Below are positions 26,634 to 34,931 of a stretch of 64,000 bases of DNA, in pieces. The stretch comes from an uncultured Planctomycetia bacterium (GTDB lineage: Bacteria > Omnitrophota > Gorgyraeia > JABMRN01 > RBG-13-46-9), in the NCBI GenBank assembly GCA_964649665.1, contig CAZYPU010000004.1, positions 511 to 64,510 of the forward strand, written 5' to 3'. The translations under genes were made by a program, and so were the position numbers. Each line of letters begins with the position of its first letter. Positions within the stretch are counted from its first letter, which is position 1. The notes beneath the pieces are model-generated. The model saw only the letters and a program-made list of their open reading frames with translations. It was not told the origin of the DNA and did no database searches.

Positions 26634-26709
26634 GCTAGCGTAGCTCAGCTGGTAGAGCACCTCACTTGTAATGAGGATGTCGTCAGTTCGACCCTGACCG
26701 CTAGCTCCA
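26634..26709 (+). tRNA. tRNA-Thr (anticodon UGU), CCA encoded
   Basis: GCTAGCGTAGCTCAGCTGGTAGAGCACCTCACTTGTAATGAGGATGTCGTCAGTTCGACCCTGACCGCTAGCTCCA. Starts directly after the nnrD stop codon. Confidence 0.93.
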
Positions 26710-26874
26710 ATTCCGCCTTAGGCGGAATTGATCCTGAAGCAATGAAGAAAATGCGATGAATAAGAGTATTTTCCGTTGCTATCGCAAAAATTAAGGTACT
26801 TCGGAATGGCAGATCCTCCCACAGGTCGGATTTGCGCCATTCATCAGTATCAAGATTTCTCAAAGTGAAATTTT

Positions 26875-26958
26875 GGGGAGATGCCGGAGCAGCTAAACGG
26901 ACCAGACTGTAAATCTGGCGGTCTTTGACCTACGGAGGTGCGAATCCTCCTCTCCCCA
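26875..26958 (+). tRNA. tRNA-Tyr (anticodon GUA), long variable arm
   Basis: GGGGAGATGCCGGAGC...CCAGACTGTAAATCTGG...GGAGGTGCGAATCCTCCTCTCCCCA. Confidence 0.92.
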
Positions 26959-27012
26959 CTCTATAAGGTGCGGCCTCGGAGAAAAAAGTGAGAAAAGATT
27001 TGAGCATGCTCG

Positions 27013-27104
27013 AGGACGAGAGCAGGGAGAAACTCGCGGGCGTAGCCCTTCGCGTGGCTGAGGCCACGCTCAGGACGAGAGCAGGGAGAAACTCGCGGGC
27101 GTAG
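27013..27104 (+). repeat. 33-nt direct repeat (27013-27045 and 27072-27104) that includes the first 10 nt of tRNA-Gly
   Basis: AGGACGAGAGCAGGGAGAAACTCGCGGGCGTAG occurs twice. The copies are separated by the hairpin GCGTGGC-TGAG-GCCACGC. Confidence 0.85.
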
Positions 27105-27165
27105 TTCAATGGTAGAACGGTAGCCTTCCAAGCTACACACGGGGGTTCGATTCCCCCCGCCCGCT
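27095..27165 (+). tRNA. tRNA-Gly (anticodon UCC)
   Basis: GCGGGCGTAGTTCAATGGTAGAACGGTAGCCTTCCAAGCTACACACGGGGGTTCGATTCCCCCCGCCCGCT. Confidence 0.92.
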
Positions 27166-27177
27166 CCGGAATAAATT

Positions 27178-28488
27178 ATGAAAAAAATTAAACTGCAGTA
27201 CAGGGTTACCGTTCTCATAGCGGGGCTGTCCCTCTTATTAATAGTCGTTTTTACCACGATACAGCTTCGCAACCATCTCGAGAGATTGCGCTCCTACAAT
27301 AGGTACCGCGCGCGCGTGGGCACGATCATAGTAAAAACCACTCTTGAGATGATGCTCCGGGCCGTGCCATCCGAAGAGGCGCTCTCCGGTGTATTCGGAG
27401 CCGCGGTAGCGTCGTTTGCCAGAGAGGGTGTGGCCGAGAAGATCTCCATCATGACCCCTGACGGGCAGGCCGTAGCGACAAACGACCCCCTTGTCAAAAA
27501 ATTCGGCGAAACAAAAAAAGACATCGTGGCATACTCGCGGCTCTCAAAAGCCGCCGGTAAAGACGCCTGGTTTTTCTCCGTGATAAATAAGAAAACCCAG
27601 AACATAGATATTTATATACCGCTTAACATAAGCCCGGCCCTCACGTATATCGCCAAACTCTCGTTTTCCATAGGTAATATACGGGAGGCCATGTTCGATA
27701 TACTCGTCCCCGTTACCATAACCTGCGTTTCGATAATAGTCGCCAATATCATCCTGGGATTTATATTGTCGCGCACGGTGGTGCGGCCGATAAATATTCT
27801 GAACATGGCCACCAAAGATATTGCCTCGGGCAATCTCGATTGCAGGGTCGCCATACATACCAACGACGAAATACAGGAGCTGGGGGAGACGTTTAATACC
27901 ATGACTATCGCGCTCAAGAAAATGAAGGACAGGGCCGAGAACGCGAACCCCTTGACCCGCCTTCCCGGCAACAACATGATAAGCGAAGAAGTTGAAAACC
28001 GGATACGAAAAGGCCTCAAGTTCGTGGCCATGCACGCGGACCTGGATAATTTTAAGGCATATAATGACCGCTATGGTATCGCCAGGGGCGACGAGGTCAT
28101 AAAATTCACAAGCGAGGTGCTAAAAAACGCTATAAAAGAAAATGGGAACCGCAGGGACTTCTTAGGTCACGAAGGAGGGGATGACTTTTACGTCATAACG
28201 ACCCCGGATAAGGCCGAGAGCGTCGCGGACAAAATACTCGCTGATTTCGATTCAAAAATAAGGAGCTTTTACACGAAAGATGACCGGGAGGCCGGATGCA
28301 TACACGAAAAAGACAGGAAGGGCGAGATGGTAAAATTCCCATTAATGACGATGTCGCTCGCCGGCATTACAAACCAATTCCGTAAGATCTCCAGCTACGG
28401 AGAGCTTACAAACATCGCCGTAGGGGTTAAGGCGAAAGCGAAAGAGATAAATAAGAGTATCTTTATTCTGGACAGGCGCAAGGCCTGA
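27178..28488 (+). CDS. membrane sensor with HAMP domain and GGDEF-family cyclase domain carrying a GGDDF motif
   Basis: N-terminal TM helix, periplasmic-like segment, second TM helix, then HAMP (RPINILNMATKDIASGNL...). Cyclase domain: LTRLPGNNMI, DLDNFKAYNDRYG, HEGGDDFYV (codons 28174-28188). Confidence 0.75.
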   Translation: MKKIKLQYRVTVLIAGLSLLLIVVFTTIQLRNHLERLRSYNRYRARVGTIIVKTTLEMMLRAVPSEEALSGVFGAAVASFAREGVAEKISIMTPDGQAVATNDPLVKKFGETKKDIVAYSRLSKAAGKDAWFFSVINKKTQNIDIYIPLNISPALTYIAKLSFSIGNIREAMFDILVPVTITCVSIIVANIILGFILSRTVVRPINILNMATKDIASGNLDCRVAIHTNDEIQELGETFNTMTIALKKMKDRAENANPLTRLPGNNMISEEVENRIRKGLKFVAMHADLDNFKAYNDRYGIARGDEVIKFTSEVLKNAIKENGNRRDFLGHEGGDDFYVITTPDKAESVADKILADFDSKIRSFYTKDDREAGCIHEKDRKGEMVKFPLMTMSLAGITNQFRKISSYGELTNIAVGVKAKAKEINKSIFILDRRKA

Positions 28489-28521
28489 ATGTTAAAATAT
28501 CAAAAAGGTAGCATGCCGCTC

Positions 28522-28549
28522 TTGACAATCCCGGCACATAGTATATACT
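28522..28549 (+). promoter_or_regulatory. sigma70-type promoter driving the leader of the secreted repeat protein gene
   Basis: TTGACA (28522-28527), 16 nt spacer, TATACT (28544-28549). Confidence 0.55.
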
Positions 28550-28555
28550 TGTATT

Positions 28556-28783
28556 AGGGGAACGAAAAGGCACACCATCTGAAAGGGTGGGTCCCCTGCT
28601 TCGCTGAATTGCTTACGCGTTCAGCTTCGCAGGGCTCTTTGAAGCCACACGCGAAAGCAATGTGGCGAAGAAGAGGCAAAGCTCAAGAGCCCCGTGCATG
28701 GGGTAGTCAGCTGCCGAGGCTCAGAGAAGCGGACCTGTTCAGACAGACCTATTCATGCAGATGTGTGTGGATAGGTTTTTTTT
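28556..28783 (+). promoter_or_regulatory. ~230-nt structured 5' leader ending in a hairpin plus T8 (riboswitch/attenuator candidate, class unknown)
   Basis: Successive hairpins: GGGGA..TCCCC enclosing a CCATC-TGAAAG-GGTGG hairpin; CTGC-TTC-GCTGAA..TTCAGC-TTC-GCAG; GGCTCTT(T)GA..TCAAGAGCC enclosing GCCACA..TGTGGC; CCCC-GTGCAT-GGGG; ACCTAT..ATAGGT followed by TTTTTTTT (28776-28783). The RBS and start codon follow ~40 nt later. Confidence 0.5.
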
Positions 28784-28833
28784 GCGTGATTATCTAAAGG
28801 TTTTGAAAAGTTTTAAAGTGGAGGATGGCTAAG

Positions 28834-31395
28834 ATGAAGACCCTGATGCGTAAGATGAAGAAAGTCTGCGTACTCATAACCATAGCGGCTTTCGGGTCGC
28901 TTATGCCCGGGGTCGCGGTTTACCCTCAGGAGGACTCCGTAGAAAGGCACATGCAAAACGGCTCACGCGTTATGGCTCCGGGTTGGCTTAACGTCGACAA
29001 TCAGAAGGGCCGGGCCTTTAAGGAGCAAGTCCTGCAAAAGGGAGTTTCCGCCGAAAAGCAAATGAAAAGGATAGGCGCTGACCTTGAAAGAAGCCTTCTC
29101 GAAAGAACCACAGATACAGTTAAGCCGGATCTGAAGAAAAAAACGGCCAAGGTAAGTTCGGCGGCCCCGACAGGCGTCGCAACCTTCGAGACGTTGGTTA
29201 TACAGGCAGATAACGTGATTGTCGAACAGGCCCTGGTCGAAATAGCCGAAGCGGAAGGCATAGAACAAGGCGCCATAGACTATGCCGCATTGACCACGGG
29301 GGACATCGTGTTTACATGGCAAAAAGACGGCGCGATTTATGGGCGCGTGTACGATGACACGGGGGCTATTTCCGGAGATGCGGATGCCGCATTTCAGAGC
29401 GCGCTTTTTACCCCCGGACAGAACGTTGACTATGTGATCCAGGCATTGTATGACGGAGGATTCGTTGTTGGGTATTCCTCATCAAATGACGGGTGGGATT
29501 CATCAACATCCATCTATACGACTTTCTTCAGCAGATTCGATTCTCAAAACAACACGTTTACCGGCTTTTCGGTGGGCGGCGGTTCCGGAAAAATAACTTC
29601 TATAACCGGTTTATCCGACGGGCGTTTCGCGGCGGCATGGGACGGAGGATATTTCGACACCAGCTACTTCAGAATAATAGGCGCGGATAACAACTTCGGA
29701 AGCGAAATATACCTGGGCTCCAGCTACTACCAGTCCAACTACGGATATACGCGCAGCATGCGCCCGCAACTTGTCACATTGACTAATGGCAATATAGCCG
29801 CCGCGTGGTACACAGAGAGCCATTATAACTACCCAATTATCGGCTACAGTTTCAGCGGTTACTATTCCGTATATAATCCTGATAACAATGGCATGCTGTC
29901 CTACACCTCGATAGACGGCTCGTATGGGTTTAGCCCGAACGTAATCTCTCTTTCAAACGGCGGGTTTGCCATTTCGTGGTCTAACGCCAGCGACACAATG
30001 TATTTCCGGACTTTTGACGCTTCGGGCGGTTACGACAGCTCCAGGATAGAGATAGCGAGCTTTCAATATGATTATTACACCACCTCACCCACTGGGTTTG
30101 ATCAACGTTATTGCGCGCCTACCATGGTTGAGCTTTCGAACGGTAAAATCGCGGTTGTTTACGGCAATATAGCGCTTGACGGGTATCGTCTGAGCGTGTA
30201 CGGGGAGGACGGTACATGGATTACCACGGCTGCCAGACTCACTTATTACGAGTGGGACCGGAACTTGCGAGTTCACGCGCTTGAAGGTGATACACTTGCG
30301 ATATCATATGAACATGGGTACGATTCTCCTTGGGCTTATGGCCAGTACAGCGCCACCGGCGAAGTTTTTGGATCAGAGCAAATATTTGCCATGCCCACAG
30401 AGACGCGGACACGCGTCTCGGCCGCCGCGGATTTCGATATGAGAGGCGCCAGCGATACAAGCGCTTTTTCGAGGTTAGATGATGGATATGCCCCGAATTT
30501 ATTTGCCACTCTGTCTTTCGGCAATGAATACGGCGAACCGTTAGGCGCCCGCACGCTTATATCCGCCTTCAGGGGCCTTTTGGAATTGAATAGCGCCGGC
30601 ATGCTGAACGCGGAGGGAATGCCGGATGGCGTGTTGGACCCGGCGCTTCTTGCGGAGCTCTTAGCGGGAGTATTAGAGGAATCAGCGTTTATGGCGTCGA
30701 TGGGTGAGCTGACATCCCAGGAGATGCAAATGGTAATGATGCTGGCAAGTATAATAAATAACCCCACGATCGAACAGCAGGAAATTCTTGACGTATTGGA
30801 AGCGCTTATCAGCCAGGTACAAAAGATGGCAGAAGATACCGGCAGCGCCCCCGAGCTTGAGCAGACTTCGGACGACTTTACCCAGATGGTTGCCGCCGTC
30901 CTTTTGGCCCAGGCCCTGCCGGGACTTCTTAAGGAAGGGGATATGTCGAATGTAAAAGGCATATTTGGCGATCTCGATAGGGAAAAATCCAATATCCTGC
31001 TTCAATACGGACAGCAGGCAAGCAGGTACTACGAGCTTATAGCGGAGGAACTCGCGGCCAATATGACCACACTTCAGATTAAGGGCCTGTTGAAAAAGAA
31101 CATAACGGCAGAAGAGGAGCTGACAAAGCTTCCTTTTGATCAAATAGATGCAATCGTAAAGAAAATACGCAACGCAAAAGACAAGACCATAACCGAAGAG
31201 CGCGTATTAAAGGCAGAGGCAAAATACAGGGAAGAACATCTTATGCCCGCCAAACGGATGCTCGAACAAAATATGAAAACGCTCCTTCAGGGCTTTACCA
31301 AGAAGCTTTTCGGCGTCCTTGACGGCGCGGGCCTTGTGAAGGAGAAGGCGGAACAGGGCAAGCCGGTACTTAACATAGACTTATCGGCGAAATAA
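28834..31395 (+). CDS. secreted protein with beta-propeller-like repeats and an alpha-helical C-terminal region (function unknown)
   Basis: Start placed at ATG 28834 (GGAGG 9 nt upstream); the ORF track starts at 28825. Signal peptide. About 7 degenerate repeats of the form L-[ST]-[ND]-G-x-[FI]-A-[AIV]-x-[WY]. The last ~330 aa are A/E/L/M-rich. Confidence 0.7.
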   Translation: MKTLMRKMKKVCVLITIAAFGSLMPGVAVYPQEDSVERHMQNGSRVMAPGWLNVDNQKGRAFKEQVLQKGVSAEKQMKRIGADLERSLLERTTDTVKPDLKKKTAKVSSAAPTGVATFETLVIQADNVIVEQALVEIAEAEGIEQGAIDYAALTTGDIVFTWQKDGAIYGRVYDDTGAISGDADAAFQSALFTPGQNVDYVIQALYDGGFVVGYSSSNDGWDSSTSIYTTFFSRFDSQNNTFTGFSVGGGSGKITSITGLSDGRFAAAWDGGYFDTSYFRIIGADNNFGSEIYLGSSYYQSNYGYTRSMRPQLVTLTNGNIAAAWYTESHYNYPIIGYSFSGYYSVYNPDNNGMLSYTSIDGSYGFSPNVISLSNGGFAISWSNASDTMYFRTFDASGGYDSSRIEIASFQYDYYTTSPTGFDQRYCAPTMVELSNGKIAVVYGNIALDGYRLSVYGEDGTWITTAARLTYYEWDRNLRVHALEGDTLAISYEHGYDSPWAYGQYSATGEVFGSEQIFAMPTETRTRVSAAADFDMRGASDTSAFSRLDDGYAPNLFATLSFGNEYGEPLGARTLISAFRGLLELNSAGMLNAEGMPDGVLDPALLAELLAGVLEESAFMASMGELTSQEMQMVMMLASIINNPTIEQQEILDVLEALISQVQKMAEDTGSAPELEQTSDDFTQMVAAVLLAQALPGLLKEGDMSNVKGIFGDLDREKSNILLQYGQQASRYYELIAEELAANMTTLQIKGLLKKNITAEEELTKLPFDQIDAIVKKIRNAKDKTITEERVLKAEAKYREEHLMPAKRMLEQNMKTLLQGFTKKLFGVLDGAGLVKEKAEQGKPVLNIDLSAK

Positions 31396-31786: not shown

Positions 31787-31833
31787 CCTCAATCGCGCCT
31801 GTGAAGGGAAGTAAAAAAAAGTTAAAAAAACCC

Positions 31834-31861
31834 TTGACAAAAAATTTATTTATGGTATAGT
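31834..31861 (+). promoter_or_regulatory. sigma70-type promoter upstream of the LAGLIDADG-like ORF / tRNA-Thr / tuf
   Basis: TTGACA (31834-31839), 16 nt spacer, TATAGT (31856-31861). Confidence 0.55.
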
Positions 31862-31914
31862 GATGAACTTGTTTGCACTAAGCGGACCAGTTTCGCCTAC
31901 AGAAGAGGATATGG

Positions 31915-32586
31915 ATGCAACTACGCGATATCGTAGTAAGTTACGAAAAGGGAAATTCCATAAACGAGATAGCTTCCGCGTTCGGCCTCTCGACGAGGAA
32001 GATCAGGGGCATATTATCCACTAATAATATAGTCATGCGAAATCACAAAGAAGCCTCATACCTAAAAAACAACAAAGACGGCGACCCGTTCGACATATTG
32101 ACCGAACTTACGCCGGAAGAAGAGCACCTGAAAGCAATGGCGCTCGGGCTTTACCTTACGGAAGGAAACACAAAAAACAAAAATTCCGTACGCTTTTCCA
32201 ATTCGGACCCGGCGCTTGTAAAGATATTCGTTAAATTTTTAAAAGCTGTCTGTGGTGTTGAAAATGACAAGATAAGGATGTCGTTAATCGTGTATCCGGA
32301 TGTCCCGCAAAAAGCGGCAAGGGAGTACTGGGCGAATTTCCTGGGTCTTCCAATAATTCAGTTTACGAAAACAACCGTTTTAAAAAACAGGAGTAACCAC
32401 AGTTCAAAAAGACACTCGGAATTCGGCACCATTACTATATATGTGCACAATACAAAGCTCCTGGGTATCATAAAAGAGTGGGCGCGGGAATATGCCCATA
32501 TAGCTCAGTTGGTAGAGCACATCCATGGTAAGGATGAGGTCGTCGGTTCAACCCCGACTGTGGGCTCCGCTATTAAAAGGAGGTAA
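31915..32586 (+). CDS. HTH plus LAGLIDADG-like (homing-endonuclease-like) protein; the 3' end reads through tRNA-Thr
   Basis: N-terminal HTH ([22 protein letters not shown]). [13 protein letters not shown] followed by [18 protein letters not shown] resembles a single LAGLIDADG motif and core. There is no stop codon before the tRNA at 32494. Confidence 0.45.
32494..32566 (+). tRNA. tRNA-Thr (anticodon GGU)
   Basis: GCCCATATAGCTCAGTTGGTAGAGCACATCCATGGTAAGGATGAGGTCGTCGGTTCAACCCCGACTGTGGGCT. Lies 22 nt upstream of tuf. Confidence 0.92.
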
Positions 32587-32588
32587 AG

Positions 32589-33785
32589 ATGGCTAAAGCA
32601 AAATTTGAACGCACAAAGCCGCACGTAAATGTCGGCACAATAGGGCACATAGATCACGGAAAGACCTGCCTTACGAGCGCCATAACCCAGGTCCTCGCAT
32701 TAAAGGGCCAGTCAACCGCGAAAACCTATGCGGAAATCGCGAAAGGCGGAGCCGTAAGGGATAAGTCAAAGATTCTCACCATAGCGGTCGCGCACGTGGA
32801 ATACGAAACAGAAAAGCGCCATTACGCGCATATCGACTGCCCGGGCCACGCAGACTATATAAAGAACATGATAACGGGAGCGGCCCAGATGGACGGAGCG
32901 ATCCTTGTCGTATCGGCGGCCGACGGCCCGATGCCCCAGACAAGGGAGCACATTCTTCTTGCAAGGCAGGTAAATGTGCCCGCGATAGTAGTATTTTTAA
33001 ACAAGGTAGACCTCGTAGACGACAAGGAGCTGCTTGACCTTGTGGAGCTTGAAGTAAGGGAGCTTCTCACGAAGTACAAGTTCCCGGGAGAGAAAACACC
33101 CGTCGTAAAGGGAAGCGCGCTTAAAGCTATGCAGAAACCCGAAGACGCGGAAGCCGCAAAGCCCATATTCGAGCTCCTGAAAGCGGTAGACGATTTCATC
33201 CCTATCCCAAAAAGAGACATCGACAAACCTTTCTTAATGCCAATCGAAGACGTATTCTCAATCACCGGAAGGGGAACTGTCGGCACGGGCCGCGTGGAAA
33301 GGGGCCAGGTAAAAACGGGGGAAGAGATTGAAATCGTGGGTCTTAAAGACACAAAAAAAAGCATCGTAACAGGCGTTGAGATGTTCAGGAAGATCCTGGA
33401 CTCGGGCCAGGCAGGGGATAATATAGGAGTCCTCTTAAGAGGCGTTGAGAAAAAAGACCTCATGCGCGGACAGGTCCTCGCAAAGCCCGGAACCATAAAA
33501 CCGCATAAAAATTGCAAGGGCGAGGCCTACATCCTGACCAAAGAGGAAGGCGGCCGCCACACGCCGTTTTTTAACGGCTACAGGCCGCAGTTCTACTTCA
33601 GGACCACCGACGTAACCGGATCCGTCACGCTTCCCAAGGATGTCGAAATGGTTATGCCGGGTGACAACGTTACGGTAGAAATAAGCCTCATAGAGCCCAT
33701 CGCTATGGAAAAGGGTCTGAGGTTCGCTATACGCGAAGGCGGCCACACCGTCGGCGCGGGCGTAATAACGGAGATAAACGAGTAA
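32589..33785 (+). CDS. tuf: elongation factor Tu
   Basis: [26 protein letters not shown]. 398 aa. Confidence 0.97.
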
Positions 33786-33786
33786 T

Positions 33787-34128
33787 ATGCCGGCAAAGGC
33801 AAAAACAATAAAAGCAAAACCGGGTATCGCGGTAAAGATAAGGATAAGGCTTATGGCCTATGACCATAGGATTTTGGACTTATCCTGTGAGGAGATCGTT
33901 GAAACCGTGAAAAAAACAGGGGCGGTCATTTCGGGGCCGCTGCCGCTTCCCACGAGAAGGGAACTCTTTACGGTTCTGCGCTCGCCGCATATCGACAAGA
34001 AATCGAGGGAGCAGTTTCAGATTAAGACGCATAAGCGGCTCCTGGAGATAATAAATCCGACGGCGAAGACTATCGACGCCTTAAGGAGGCTCGATTTGCC
34101 GGCCGGGGTGAACGTGGAAATAAAGTAA
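33787..34128 (+). CDS. rpsJ: 30S ribosomal protein S10
   Basis: [14 protein letters not shown]. First gene of the S10 operon. Confidence 0.93.
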
Positions 34129-34136
34129 ATGAGGGC

Positions 34137-34226
34137 ACAACTTACGTCAGCCATAGTGGTTGACGTAAGTTGTAAGCCCGAATTTATCCTGAGGCACCGA
34201 AGGTGCCGAAGGATCTAAAGGATCTC
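34137..34226 (+). promoter_or_regulatory. structured spacer between rpsJ and rplC
   Basis: Perfect 13-bp hairpin ACAACTTACGTCA..TGACGTAAGTTGT (34137-34173). GGCACC-GAA-GGTGCC hairpin (34193-34207). Tandem AAGGATCT x2 from about 34209. Confidence 0.5.
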
Positions 34227-34241
34227 AATTAAAAGGTGAGT

Positions 34242-34931
34242 ATGAACGGAATACTCGGAAAAAAAATAGGCATGACAAATATTTTTGACCAGGAGGGCCG
34301 CTTTGTCCCTGTGACGCTTATAGAAGCGGGCCCCTGTCTTGTCCTGGATACAAAGACGAAAGAAAGATGCGGGTACTCCGCCGTGATTTTGGGATATGGG
34401 CAAAAAAAGCCCGCACGGGTAAAAAAACCGCAAAAAAAATGGCCTGTCCGCGTTATAAAGGAAATAAGGATGGAGCCTCCCGCGGCCGTTAAGGCCGGCG
34501 ACAGGATCGGGGTAAACTTGTTCAAAAGCGGCGATTACGTGGACGTAACGGGAACTACTATCGGGAAGGGATTCCAGGGCGGCATGAAGCGATGGGGCTG
34601 GCGCGGAGGAAGAAAATCCCACGGCTCTATGTTTCACCGGGCACCGGGTTCTATCGGAGCCAGCTCCTATCCGTCAAGGGTACACAAGGGCAAGCACCTC
34701 CCCGGCCATATGGGCGCGGTCAAAAGGACAACCCAGAATTTAAAAATCATGAGCGTCGACGAAGAAAAAAATATACTTAGCGTAAAAGGGTCCGTGGCCG
34801 GTCACAGGGGAAGCTTCCTCGTAATAAAGAGCGCGAAGAAACGACCACAGGAAGTCCCGAGCACCACAATAAAAAATACAGACCGCGAGGGAAGGCCGCC
34901 GAAAGAAAGCGTTACATCCGTAAACCCGTAG
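34242..34931 (+). CDS. rplC: 50S ribosomal protein L3 with C-terminal extension
   Basis: MNGILGKKIGMTNIFD (ATG 34242; the ORF track uses GTG 34236). The tail KKRPQEVPSTTIKNTDREGRP is shared with L31. Confidence 0.92.
   Translation: MNGILGKKIGMTNIFDQEGRFVPVTLIEAGPCLVLDTKTKERCGYSAVILGYGQKKPARVKKPQKKWPVRVIKEIRMEPPAAVKAGDRIGVNLFKSGDYVDVTGTTIGKGFQGGMKRWGWRGGRKSHGSMFHRAPGSIGASSYPSRVHKGKHLPGHMGAVKRTTQNLKIMSVDEEKNILSVKGSVAGHRGSFLVIKSAKKRPQEVPSTTIKNTDREGRPPKESVTSVNP

Follow-up and report, generated by a model that had tools for sequence, protein, structure and literature searches.

A tRNA-Thr(GGU) gene in Omnitrophota whose first 27 nucleotides appear to double as the last codons of a conserved protein

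The question raised by the locus described here is whether a protein-coding frame that runs, without a stop codon, into a tRNA gene on the same strand is a broken gene or one whose end is supplied by the tRNA. The locus lies in a 64,000-nucleotide (nt) stretch from an uncultured bacterium of the Omnitrophota lineage (assembly GCA_964649665.1, contig CAZYPU010000004.1, positions 511 to 64,510 of the forward strand), hereafter the window. It consists of an open reading frame (ORF) of 223 codons, encoding 223 amino acids (aa), at 31915-32586 (+ strand; ATG start, TAA at 32584-32586), and of an apparently intact tRNA-Thr(GGU) gene, located at 32494-32568 (+) by ARAGORN and at 32494-32566 by Rfam RF00005, with a score of 66 bits against a 29-bit threshold. 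Nucleotide 1 of the tRNA is the first base of codon 194, (32494-31915)/3 being 193, and the residues preceding it are KEWAREY. The initial annotation of the window had noted that no stop precedes tRNA-Thr and that the frame crosses the tRNA to end in the ribosome-binding site (RBS) region of tuf, and both points are borne out by the coordinates of the two genes and by the translation of the tail. The reading favoured here, at a probability of about 0.7, is that the ORF is a functional, long-resident gene of an unannotated tRNA-adjacent family, that nucleotides 1-27 of tRNA-Thr are dual-coding, and that the family had a putative endonuclease-like mobile origin.

A junction and reading frame conserved among homologues

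A search of 5.8 billion proteins returned 81 homologue clusters at 57-88% identity, 75 full-length and 6 fragmentary, the named homologues coming from metagenome-assembled genomes of Candidatus Omnitrophota. A stop before the tRNA is found in none of the 75 full-length clusters. In 52 of them the protein continues from Tyr193 into A[HL][VI]AQLVEH and onward, for 26-43 residues beyond Tyr193 in all, with two ending after 11; the other 23 end exactly nine residues beyond Tyr193. At the DNA level, all 16 loci of the first, fused type read ...GAA TAY followed directly by GCCC(A/T)TRTAGCTCAG, so that tRNA nucleotide 1 adjoins the Tyr codon in an identical frame. Among the Omnitrophota homologues, the ratio of nonsynonymous to synonymous substitution rates (dN/dS) over codons 1-193 is 0.06-0.16 for pairs with unsaturated synonymous sites, and the overall ratio of the corresponding proportions (pN/pS) is 0.26. 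These values indicate that codons 1-193 (31915-32493, +), which lie outside the tRNA and encode an N-terminal helix-turn-helix (HTH) and an alpha/beta domain of ~140 aa carrying GLYLTEG...FSNSDP, are under strong purifying selection, and the alignments show the junction and the reading frame to be conserved across divergent homologues.

This pattern bears on the suggestions, made in the initial annotation, that the gene had lost its native 3' end on insertion or was decaying. An open stretch of 31 codons is not improbable in one sequence (the chance of its staying open is about 0.2), and residues 207-223 look disordered and unconserved; the open frame is significant because junction and frame are kept in every homologue, and not by virtue of single-sequence chance. 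A recent stop-loss, or a decaying pseudogene that lost its native 3' end and ran into the tRNA by accident in the window copy, is nevertheless very improbable, as no homologue at 57-88% identity stops earlier or ends well before residue ~190, the junction and frame are identical in 16 loci, dN/dS is low with synonymous sites saturated across clades, and the wider family normally runs past the equivalent of residue 193. Neither suggestion survives the comparison.

Protein-level selection on the tRNA-encoded residues

The 23 clusters ending nine residues beyond Tyr193 belong to a clade in which protein and tRNA are uncoupled. Six loci of this 201-203-aa class (L002, L018, L107-L110) carry nine private codons and a stop of their own, and a complete tRNA-Thr(GGT) begins 2-6 nt 3' of that stop (113 nt in L109). 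The six tails read TCT TAT GTT GCT CAG ATA GTT GAA CAC; TCT TAT ATC GCC CAG ATC GTG GAG AGA; TCA TAC GTA TCT CAG ATC GTA GAA CGT; ACG TAT GTA GCC CAG ATC GTA GAA AGA; TCA TAT GTT GCT CAA TTG GTC GAA CAT; and TCG TAT GTA GCC CAA TTG GTT GAA CGC, and are homologous to tRNA nucleotides 1-27 (GCC CTT GTA GCT CAG TTG GTA GAG CAC = ALVAQLVEH). Third positions vary among them at nine of nine codons and the second position at only one, Arg is encoded by both AGA and CGY, and the peptide [ST]Y[VI][AS]Q[IL]VE[HR] is kept in all 23 uncoupled clusters with the stop position fixed. Synonymous turnover with a kept peptide and a fixed stop therefore argues for protein-level selection on the tail and not for RNA-level conservation; as judged from these substitution patterns, the tRNA-encoded residues 194-202 are selected as protein. 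A simple neighbour-joining (NJ) tree built on residues 1-193 recovers the uncoupled clusters as one monophyletic group nested between two fused clades, and the distant outgroups (P0082-P0086) are fused, for which reasons the tree shows the fused state as ancestral. One partial duplication of the 5' end of the tRNA appears to have freed the protein from the tRNA, the tRNA-derived residues being retained.

A reciprocal signal is seen in the tRNA. The D-loop of the 16 fused loci shows only a TTG/CTG alternation, both being Leu codons, whereas four of the seven untranslated tRNAs (from the six uncoupled loci and one ORF-less locus) have a 1-nt insertion, a 2-nt insertion or TCG there. D-loop variants that would alter the frame or a residue thus number 0 of 16 in fused against 4 of 7 in untranslated tRNAs (Fisher p = 0.004, with phylogeny ignored), a difference showing, on this sequence evidence, a reciprocal constraint on the D-loop in those tRNAs in which it also encodes protein. 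From both lines of comparison, the segment 32494-32520 (+), that is, tRNA nucleotides 1-27 (acceptor 5' strand and D arm) or codons 194-202 (AHIAQLVEH), emerges as selected both as tRNA and as protein. The claim that the ORF is translated through the tRNA accordingly holds for the first nine tRNA-encoded codons, on the strength of the uncoupled tails and the D-loop, and does not extend to the remaining codons, which probably encode an unselected tail. As a separate observation, after uncoupling the first two tail residues, A-H/L where they are set by the acceptor stem, became S/T-Y and are invariant in this form (L002:8612-8688; L110:3163-3240), and the freed tRNAs gained length variants in the D-loop, which is consistent with release from mutual constraint.

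The extent of the working protein was also approached by structure prediction with AlphaFold2. The full protein, modelled with 73 homologues, reached a predicted local distance difference test (pLDDT) score of 84.9 (~85), and the domain spanning residues 57-202 reached a pLDDT of 88 with a predicted template modelling score (pTM) of 0.84. The model comprises an N-terminal helical HTH (residues 2-52) and a core of alpha67-83, beta91-96, alpha99-112, beta121-126, alpha132-143, beta150-155 and beta172-178, followed by a predicted C-terminal helix (180-206) which crosses the CDS (coding sequence)/tRNA junction with a pLDDT of ~87 at residues 191-200; residues 207-223 have a pLDDT below 50 and are predicted to be disordered. 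According to the model, the ends of the uncoupled proteins correspond to residue 202, within the C-terminal helix, and more distant family members usually reach 8-15 residues beyond a conserved Trp189. Because of the helix and these two sets of protein ends, the working protein is modelled as about 202 residues long, its last nine being supplied in the window by the tRNA gene. The acceptor-stem 5' strand and D arm would then encode the last nine residues, A-H/L-V/I-A-Q-L-V-E-H, of this helix, and the remaining ~21 codons would be an incidental disordered extension to the first in-frame stop. That extension, codons 203-223 with the TAA (32521-32586, +; the rest of the tRNA and the tuf RBS), is probably unselected, since residues 207-223 have a pLDDT below 50 and its length varies and its end is unconserved in fused homologues.

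An alternative is that the functional protein ends at Tyr193, that RNase P cuts and ribosomes are rescued, and that the tRNA-encoded residues are useless, the conserved frame reflecting tight packing. RNase P processing of tRNA 5' ends is universal, tRNA constraint fully explains the overlap sequence in fused loci, and ORFs of a related subfamily borrow the U8-A9-G10 of a tRNA as their stop, in a 10-nt overlap that suggests compaction. This alternative is improbable, however, because it is precisely these nine codons that the uncoupled clade has retained, with their synonymous sites turned over and the stop unmoved, because the changes in the fused D-loop are synonymous only, and because the helix is confidently predicted to extend across residues 194-206. 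Moreover, tagging by transfer-messenger RNA would normally destroy a product ended at Tyr193.

A proposed single transcript for a protein and a tRNA

A strong sigma-70-type promoter is predicted at 31812-31861 (+), with an A-tract UP-like region, a -35 element TTGACA (31834-31839) and an extended -10 element TGgTATAGT ending at 31861; in a promoter scan, 31834-31861 gave 11 of 12 matches with a 16-nt spacer and TATAGT with TG. The A tracts recur in an alignment of 14 related loci (A5), where TTGACA and TG-n-TA..T show no variation and where columns conserved to at least 90% also include the 5' untranslated region (UTR) motif CCTACAGA (31896-31903, +) and the Shine-Dalgarno (SD) sequence GAGGA (31905-31909, +) that follows it. 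The promoter and RBS of its own that the initial annotation had given the ORF are supported by the scan and by this conservation of promoter, 5' UTR and SD. The 8-nt motif CCTACAGA, just ahead of the SD, is at least 90% conserved across clades with saturated synonymous sites, and could be an operator or an RNA element. A scan found no terminator-like site between the promoter and tuf, and the ORF promoter therefore probably also feeds tRNA-Thr and tuf. The tuf gene (EF-Tu) occupies 32577-33785 (+) including its SD AAGGAGG (32577-32583), with its ATG at 32589, and the ORF stop sits inside the SD-to-ATG spacer (AAGGAGG TAA AG ATG), 2 nt before the tuf ATG, a geometry that would allow termination-reinitiation coupling to tuf. 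Several members of the clade among L007, L009, L012 and L014 have an ORF stop that overlaps the first tuf codons (ATGGCTAA), and the geometry is not universal, L008, L010, L013 and L015 being different.

With dual coding as the favoured reading, a course of events on this transcript can be proposed. One strong promoter, as predicted, would drive the ORF, tRNA-Thr and tuf, and ribosomes trailing the polymerase would read the tRNA sequence while still unfolded and terminate 2 nt before the tuf start. Once folded, the tRNA would be cut by RNase P at +1, leaving an mRNA that ends in ...GAA UAU-3' with no stop and whose translation would lead to ribosome rescue; the initial annotation had reasoned soundly that tRNA processing would cut the mRNA ahead of its stop. 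Full-length protein would come only from precursor transcripts translated before the RNase P cut, and the output of complete protein would be low, set by a race between translation and tRNA processing, despite the very strong promoter. As the uncoupled clade shows, a lineage can escape from this tRNA-linked arrangement.

The closest parallel is offered by mitochondrial 'tRNA punctuation' and incomplete-stop overlaps, where a CDS likewise abuts or overlaps a same-strand tRNA with no complete upstream stop and where, as would be the case here, the 3' end of the mRNA is set by tRNA 5' processing. The present ORF differs in lying on a bacterial chromosome, in having a frame that runs through the tRNA rather than being completed by polyadenylation, and in overlapped codons that appear to be under protein-level selection. 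Same-strand dual-coding CDS/tRNA overlap is proposed as a category. Overlaps between bacterial protein and tRNA genes are usually dismissed as gene-calling errors, and here a natural uncoupling points to tRNA-encoded codons kept as protein. The locus would be a clear example of a single DNA segment selected at once as an RNA gene and as coding sequence, and it makes the competition between translation and tRNA processing on one transcript, and the role of ribosome rescue in protein yield, directly testable.

The wider family and its candidate origins

The HTH assignment is solid, with matches in Pfam (sub-threshold for the window ORF), NCBIfam, PDB (2lvs and 8vd6) and PHROGs. The domain resembles the HTH portions of PHROG families annotated as HNH endonucleases, and a weak match to phrog_4645 'endonuclease' (E = 7e-4) was obtained. 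For the rest of the protein, the initial annotation had suggested a LAGLIDADG-like fold. The likeness to LAGLIDADG homing endonucleases (Pfam LAGLIDADG_1/2/3; I-DmoI, I-CreI) consists of a helix ending hydrophobic-x-x-acidic-Gly, with GLYLTEG corresponding to GLYVAEGD of I-DmoI, and of a short beta element and helix xxDPxLxxxFxxFL after the motif, for which the ORF family has GLYxxEG...NSDPxhxxxFxxFL. Residues E83 and G84 of GLYLTEG are at least 90% conserved in 65 diverse members, and hhalign aligned the GLYxxEG motif with the second motif of I-DmoI over 37 columns (E = 1.2e-3, probability 19.5%, with an I-DmoI sequence entered by hand) and gave no match to I-CreI. Searches of Pfam, NCBIfam, PHROGs and PDB with the ORF, the 65 diverse members and distant relatives returned no nuclease or LAGLIDADG family at threshold, only HTH; in Pfam, the 25 families most often matched by the 65 members were HTH-type or unrelated and included no LAGLIDADG family, and the best LAGLIDADG score, from one distant relative (L023), was 16.4 bits for LAGLIDADG_3 (cut-off 22.5, E = 0.011). 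The topology in two confident AlphaFold2 models, alpha-beta-alpha-beta-alpha-beta-beta-alpha, is unlike the alpha-beta-beta-alpha-beta-beta-alpha of LAGLIDADG enzymes. Foldseek searches of PDB with the full and domain models found no LAGLIDADG entry in the top 50, the best matches being weak ones to OmpA-like YfiB and IspF (TM <=0.4), and in BFVD the full model gave LAGLIDADG-named matches only at E >=0.1 and TM <=0.27 and no convincing fold relative. The acidic residue is not universal either: of 77 Omnitrophota clusters, 16 have His, Asn or Gln at the position of E83 (E83-G84 at 32161-32166 of the window) in proteins that are otherwise conserved, the variants GLYA[ST]HG, GLYVSHG, GLYATNG and GLFLTQG falling mostly in one fused clade (among proteins P0034-P0058). 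The resemblance thus stays at the level of the motif, and a LAGLIDADG fold is unproven.

More can be said of where the family lives. A profile search of 1.84 billion representatives returned 951 clusters at E <=1e-10, typically of ~200 aa with matches ending at profile positions 186-198, and the names of ten sampled clusters were 'hypothetical protein' only. The family is thus an unannotated one of more than 900 clusters, present in Omnitrophota, Patescibacteria-like organisms, Actinomycetota and large viruses, and no description of it or of its CDS/tRNA overlap was found in the literature. The window ORF lies between tRNA-Gly and tRNA-Thr, as do its counterparts in all Omnitrophota loci, and a genome scan found another family member that ends 25 nt before tRNA-Trp. 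In the same scan, an ORF from Peribacteria shares 38 nt with tRNA-Arg(UCU), which it reads in another frame (among L021:5716-6445, L022:5854-6633 and L024:5592-6222). Actinomycetota copies lie 25-200 nt 3' of tRNA-Gly(UCC), and the one in L024, split over several frames, seems to be a decayed gene. Distant relatives were also recovered from IMG/VR, 22 in number (L116-L137), at 24-36% identity and on contigs of up to 527 kb. Nineteen of these have a tRNA no more than 100 nt away, most being embedded in the tRNA arrays of large contigs, and the relatives abut or overlap Cys, Ser, Val, Glu, Pro, Thr and Met tRNAs on either strand; with opposite-strand tRNAs, it is the 3' ends of ORF and tRNA that overlap. 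Searches of GenBank phages by tblastn with the window ORF and with a viral relative gave no match.

A metagenome set of 80 loci from one subfamily (L027-L106) shows the same habit. In 72 of the 80, a tRNA-Thr(GGT) starts between -27 and +133 nt from the end of the ORF core, and in 39 the ORF overlaps a tRNA, tRNA-Thr in 38 cases and tRNA-Tyr in one. The overlap is exactly 10 nt in 27 loci (L030, L046, L049, L061, L064-L069, L072 and L073 among them), where the stop is the conserved U8-A9-G10 of tRNA-Thr (..CCG ATG TAG CTC AG..), and RNase P cleavage would remove the ORF stop in these loci also. The tRNA-Thr is split after anticodon nucleotide 36 by a structured insert of ~190 nt in about 41 of the 80 loci by a 5'-half pattern, and in at least 30 by a T-arm-paired pattern, the ORF lying ~36-46 nt upstream of this ORF-less, intron-like insert. 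Among 28 aligned inserts (A6), a U.G pair is present at the 5' junction in 27; the inserts end in G and share a GACUG/CAGUC helix that is invariant, and of 67 predicted pairs 38 show compensatory changes. On these sequence features the insert looks like a small ORF-less group I intron, and no match to the group I intron model Rfam RF00028 was obtained in the split tRNA-Thr genes even at E <=1. Examples are found at L029:3119-3378 and L035:1381-1647, and ARAGORN misses such tRNAs. Group I introns have been noted before in tRNAs of the Candidate Phyla Radiation (PMC8172020). A comparison of anticodon arms between intact and split tRNAs, with regard to immunity of an endonuclease target, gave no clear pattern.

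In the Omnitrophota the gene has stayed in one place. The order in relatives is Carb_kinase, tRNA-Thr(UGU), tRNA-Tyr, tRNA-Gly, ORF, tRNA-Thr(GGU), tuf, and the identities of EF-Tu and ORF by clade are 92.7/76.7, 90.9/81.3, 84.4/59.1 and 76.8/56.5 %, so that ORF identity tracks EF-Tu identity and long co-inheritance with tuf can be concluded. One Omnitrophota genome (L114, EF-Tu 84% identical) has a comparable promoter, a 225-nt leader, tRNA-Thr(GGU) and tuf with no ORF, and since no ORF remnant was found there, loss and never having gained the gene are indistinguishable from sequence relics; a second ORF-less site occurs in a genome of the Paceibacterota (L025). That the Omnitrophota copies are resident and perhaps domesticated is suggested by their vertical inheritance, by the strength of the promoter and by the disappearance of the acidic residue from one clade. 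The family itself would have originated as a tRNA-locus-targeting, homing-endonuclease-like mobile gene whose Omnitrophota copies are now inherited vertically with tuf; a mobile origin is favoured because of the tRNA-abutting habit in hosts and viral arrays, the pairing with ORF-less introns and the existence of ORF-less sites.

It could be argued further that the window copy is still an active free-standing homing endonuclease, which cuts tRNA-Thr(GGU) loci that lack the ORF or the intron and is copied into them by gene conversion. A position directly against the tRNA would give the tightest linkage to the cut site, ORF-less sites exist, and the family occurs in tRNA clusters of several bacterial phyla and in viral arrays, next to many tRNA identities on either strand; the LAGLIDADG-like motif has its conserved Glu-Gly, and the HTH is like that of phage HNH endonuclease families. 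A precedent inside a phage tRNA cluster is provided by SegB of T4, a free-standing homing endonuclease of the GIY-YIG type (PMC2330249), and the many relatives that flank a tRNA-Thr with an ORF-less group-I-like intron recall collaborative homing, in which an ORF is likewise found near an ORF-less structured insert (PMC3984707). With SegB-type genes the family shares an endonuclease-like ORF with a DNA-binding module wedged between tRNA genes, a variable presence among relatives and, for its distant relatives, residence in tRNA arrays of large viral contigs. It differs from them in having no GIY-YIG or HNH domain, so that nuclease activity is putative, and the Omnitrophota copy resides on the chromosome at one fixed site and is passed on vertically. 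No sharing of codons with a tRNA is known for SegB. Collaborative homing is matched incompletely as well, since the window tRNA is intron-less, the intron of the related loci is unrecognised by Rfam RF00028 and cleavage of the insertion site is putative. An active endonuclease is in all unlikely for the window copy, for no nuclease family or fold is matched, the Omnitrophota gene co-diverges with EF-Tu at one locus, 16 of 77 clusters that are still under selection have His, Asn or Gln in place of the putative catalytic Glu, the window tRNA is intron-less and uncut, and the gene is driven by a strong predicted operon promoter.

WhiA is a transcription factor with LAGLIDADG-derived domains and an HTH, and would serve as a model for a domesticated endonuclease scaffold which has lost its catalytic residues. 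By analogy, the ORF product may be a domesticated DNA- or RNA-binding host factor, for instance one that regulates its own expression at the tRNA-Thr-tuf promoter or leader, or one that chaperones a tRNA or an intron, with the overlap a matter of gene packing. The HTH, the long vertical inheritance under purifying selection, the conserved 5' UTR motif CCTACAGA as a putative operator, the loss of the acidic residue in one clade without relaxed selection and the first position in a highly expressed operon would all suit this role. The parallel with WhiA is imperfect: its domain order is opposite, the ORF has one core domain and not two, and no sequence or fold match was obtained. In addition, at least one related Omnitrophota genome (L114) can dispense with the gene, and the scatter over many tRNA identities and viral arrays fits mobility better than one host function, so that a host-factor role is a possibility of some weight that falls short of even odds.

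Several points weigh against the favoured reading of a functional, dual-coding gene of mobile origin. Fused clades alone cannot separate selection on the overlap from tRNA constraint, and the overlap argument rests on one uncoupling event, in one clade from which 23 clusters and six DNA sequences come. No correction for phylogeny enters the D-loop test. Translation into the tRNA is deduced from evolution only, and the model of RNase P cleavage, a non-stop mRNA and low output is deduced from the arrangement of the sequence. An active selfish endonuclease would not usually be inherited vertically at one locus for so long, nor be transcribed from a strong operon promoter, and no family model or fold match supports nuclease activity. 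It is rather doubtful that the boldest combination applies, in which a true dual-function tRNA/helix sequence, a throttle or sensor based on ribosomes competing with RNase P, and an undescribed tRNA-targeting mobile family partnering ORF-less group I introns, also in tRNA arrays of giant viruses or phages, would all be present together. Some of the instability of tRNA clusters, and of their intron content, could be due to a family tied to tRNAs in this way, and should its proteins turn out to be nucleases, new enzymes specific for long sites could be drawn from it.

The surroundings of the gene were examined with regard to a further proposal of the initial annotation, namely that the ORF is the driver or remnant of an island insertion. 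The tRNA-Thr(UGU), tRNA-Tyr, tRNA-Gly cluster (26634-27167, +) is directly upstream of the ORF in relatives, with only 170-900 nt between tRNA-Gly and the ORF (~200 nt in L107). The window carries an extra 4.6 kb here, which has no counterpart at that place in L001, L004, L008 and L019. This lineage-specific insert between tRNA-Gly and the ORF promoter (27178-31395, +) encodes a HAMP-GGDEF protein of 436 aa (27178-28488) and an 856-aa protein (28825-31395) with no Pfam or NCBIfam match, and its GC content (~0.50) is the same as that of its flanks. As relatives without the island hold the ORF between tRNA-Gly and tRNA-Thr, and as the insert has the GC of its flanks, the ORF is neither the edge nor the driver of the insert and the island idea was rejected. 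A close relative (L006) carries a comparable set of 757, 75, 864 and 441 aa, the last with Laminin_G_3, and L012-L014 have other inserts within the same tRNA cluster, which is therefore a variable hotspot. Downstream of the window tuf (32589-34931) lies the S10-L3 operon, whereas the tRNA-Thr-linked tuf of relatives is followed by tRNA-Trp-secE-nusG-L11, L111 having fusA-tuf-tRNA-Trp-secE (the window was compared with L001, L002, L004, L111 and L113). Given these differing gene orders and the identical proteins encoded by the two tuf copies in L113/L114, the downstream contexts of tufA and tufB appear to have been swapped by recombination in the clade of the window.

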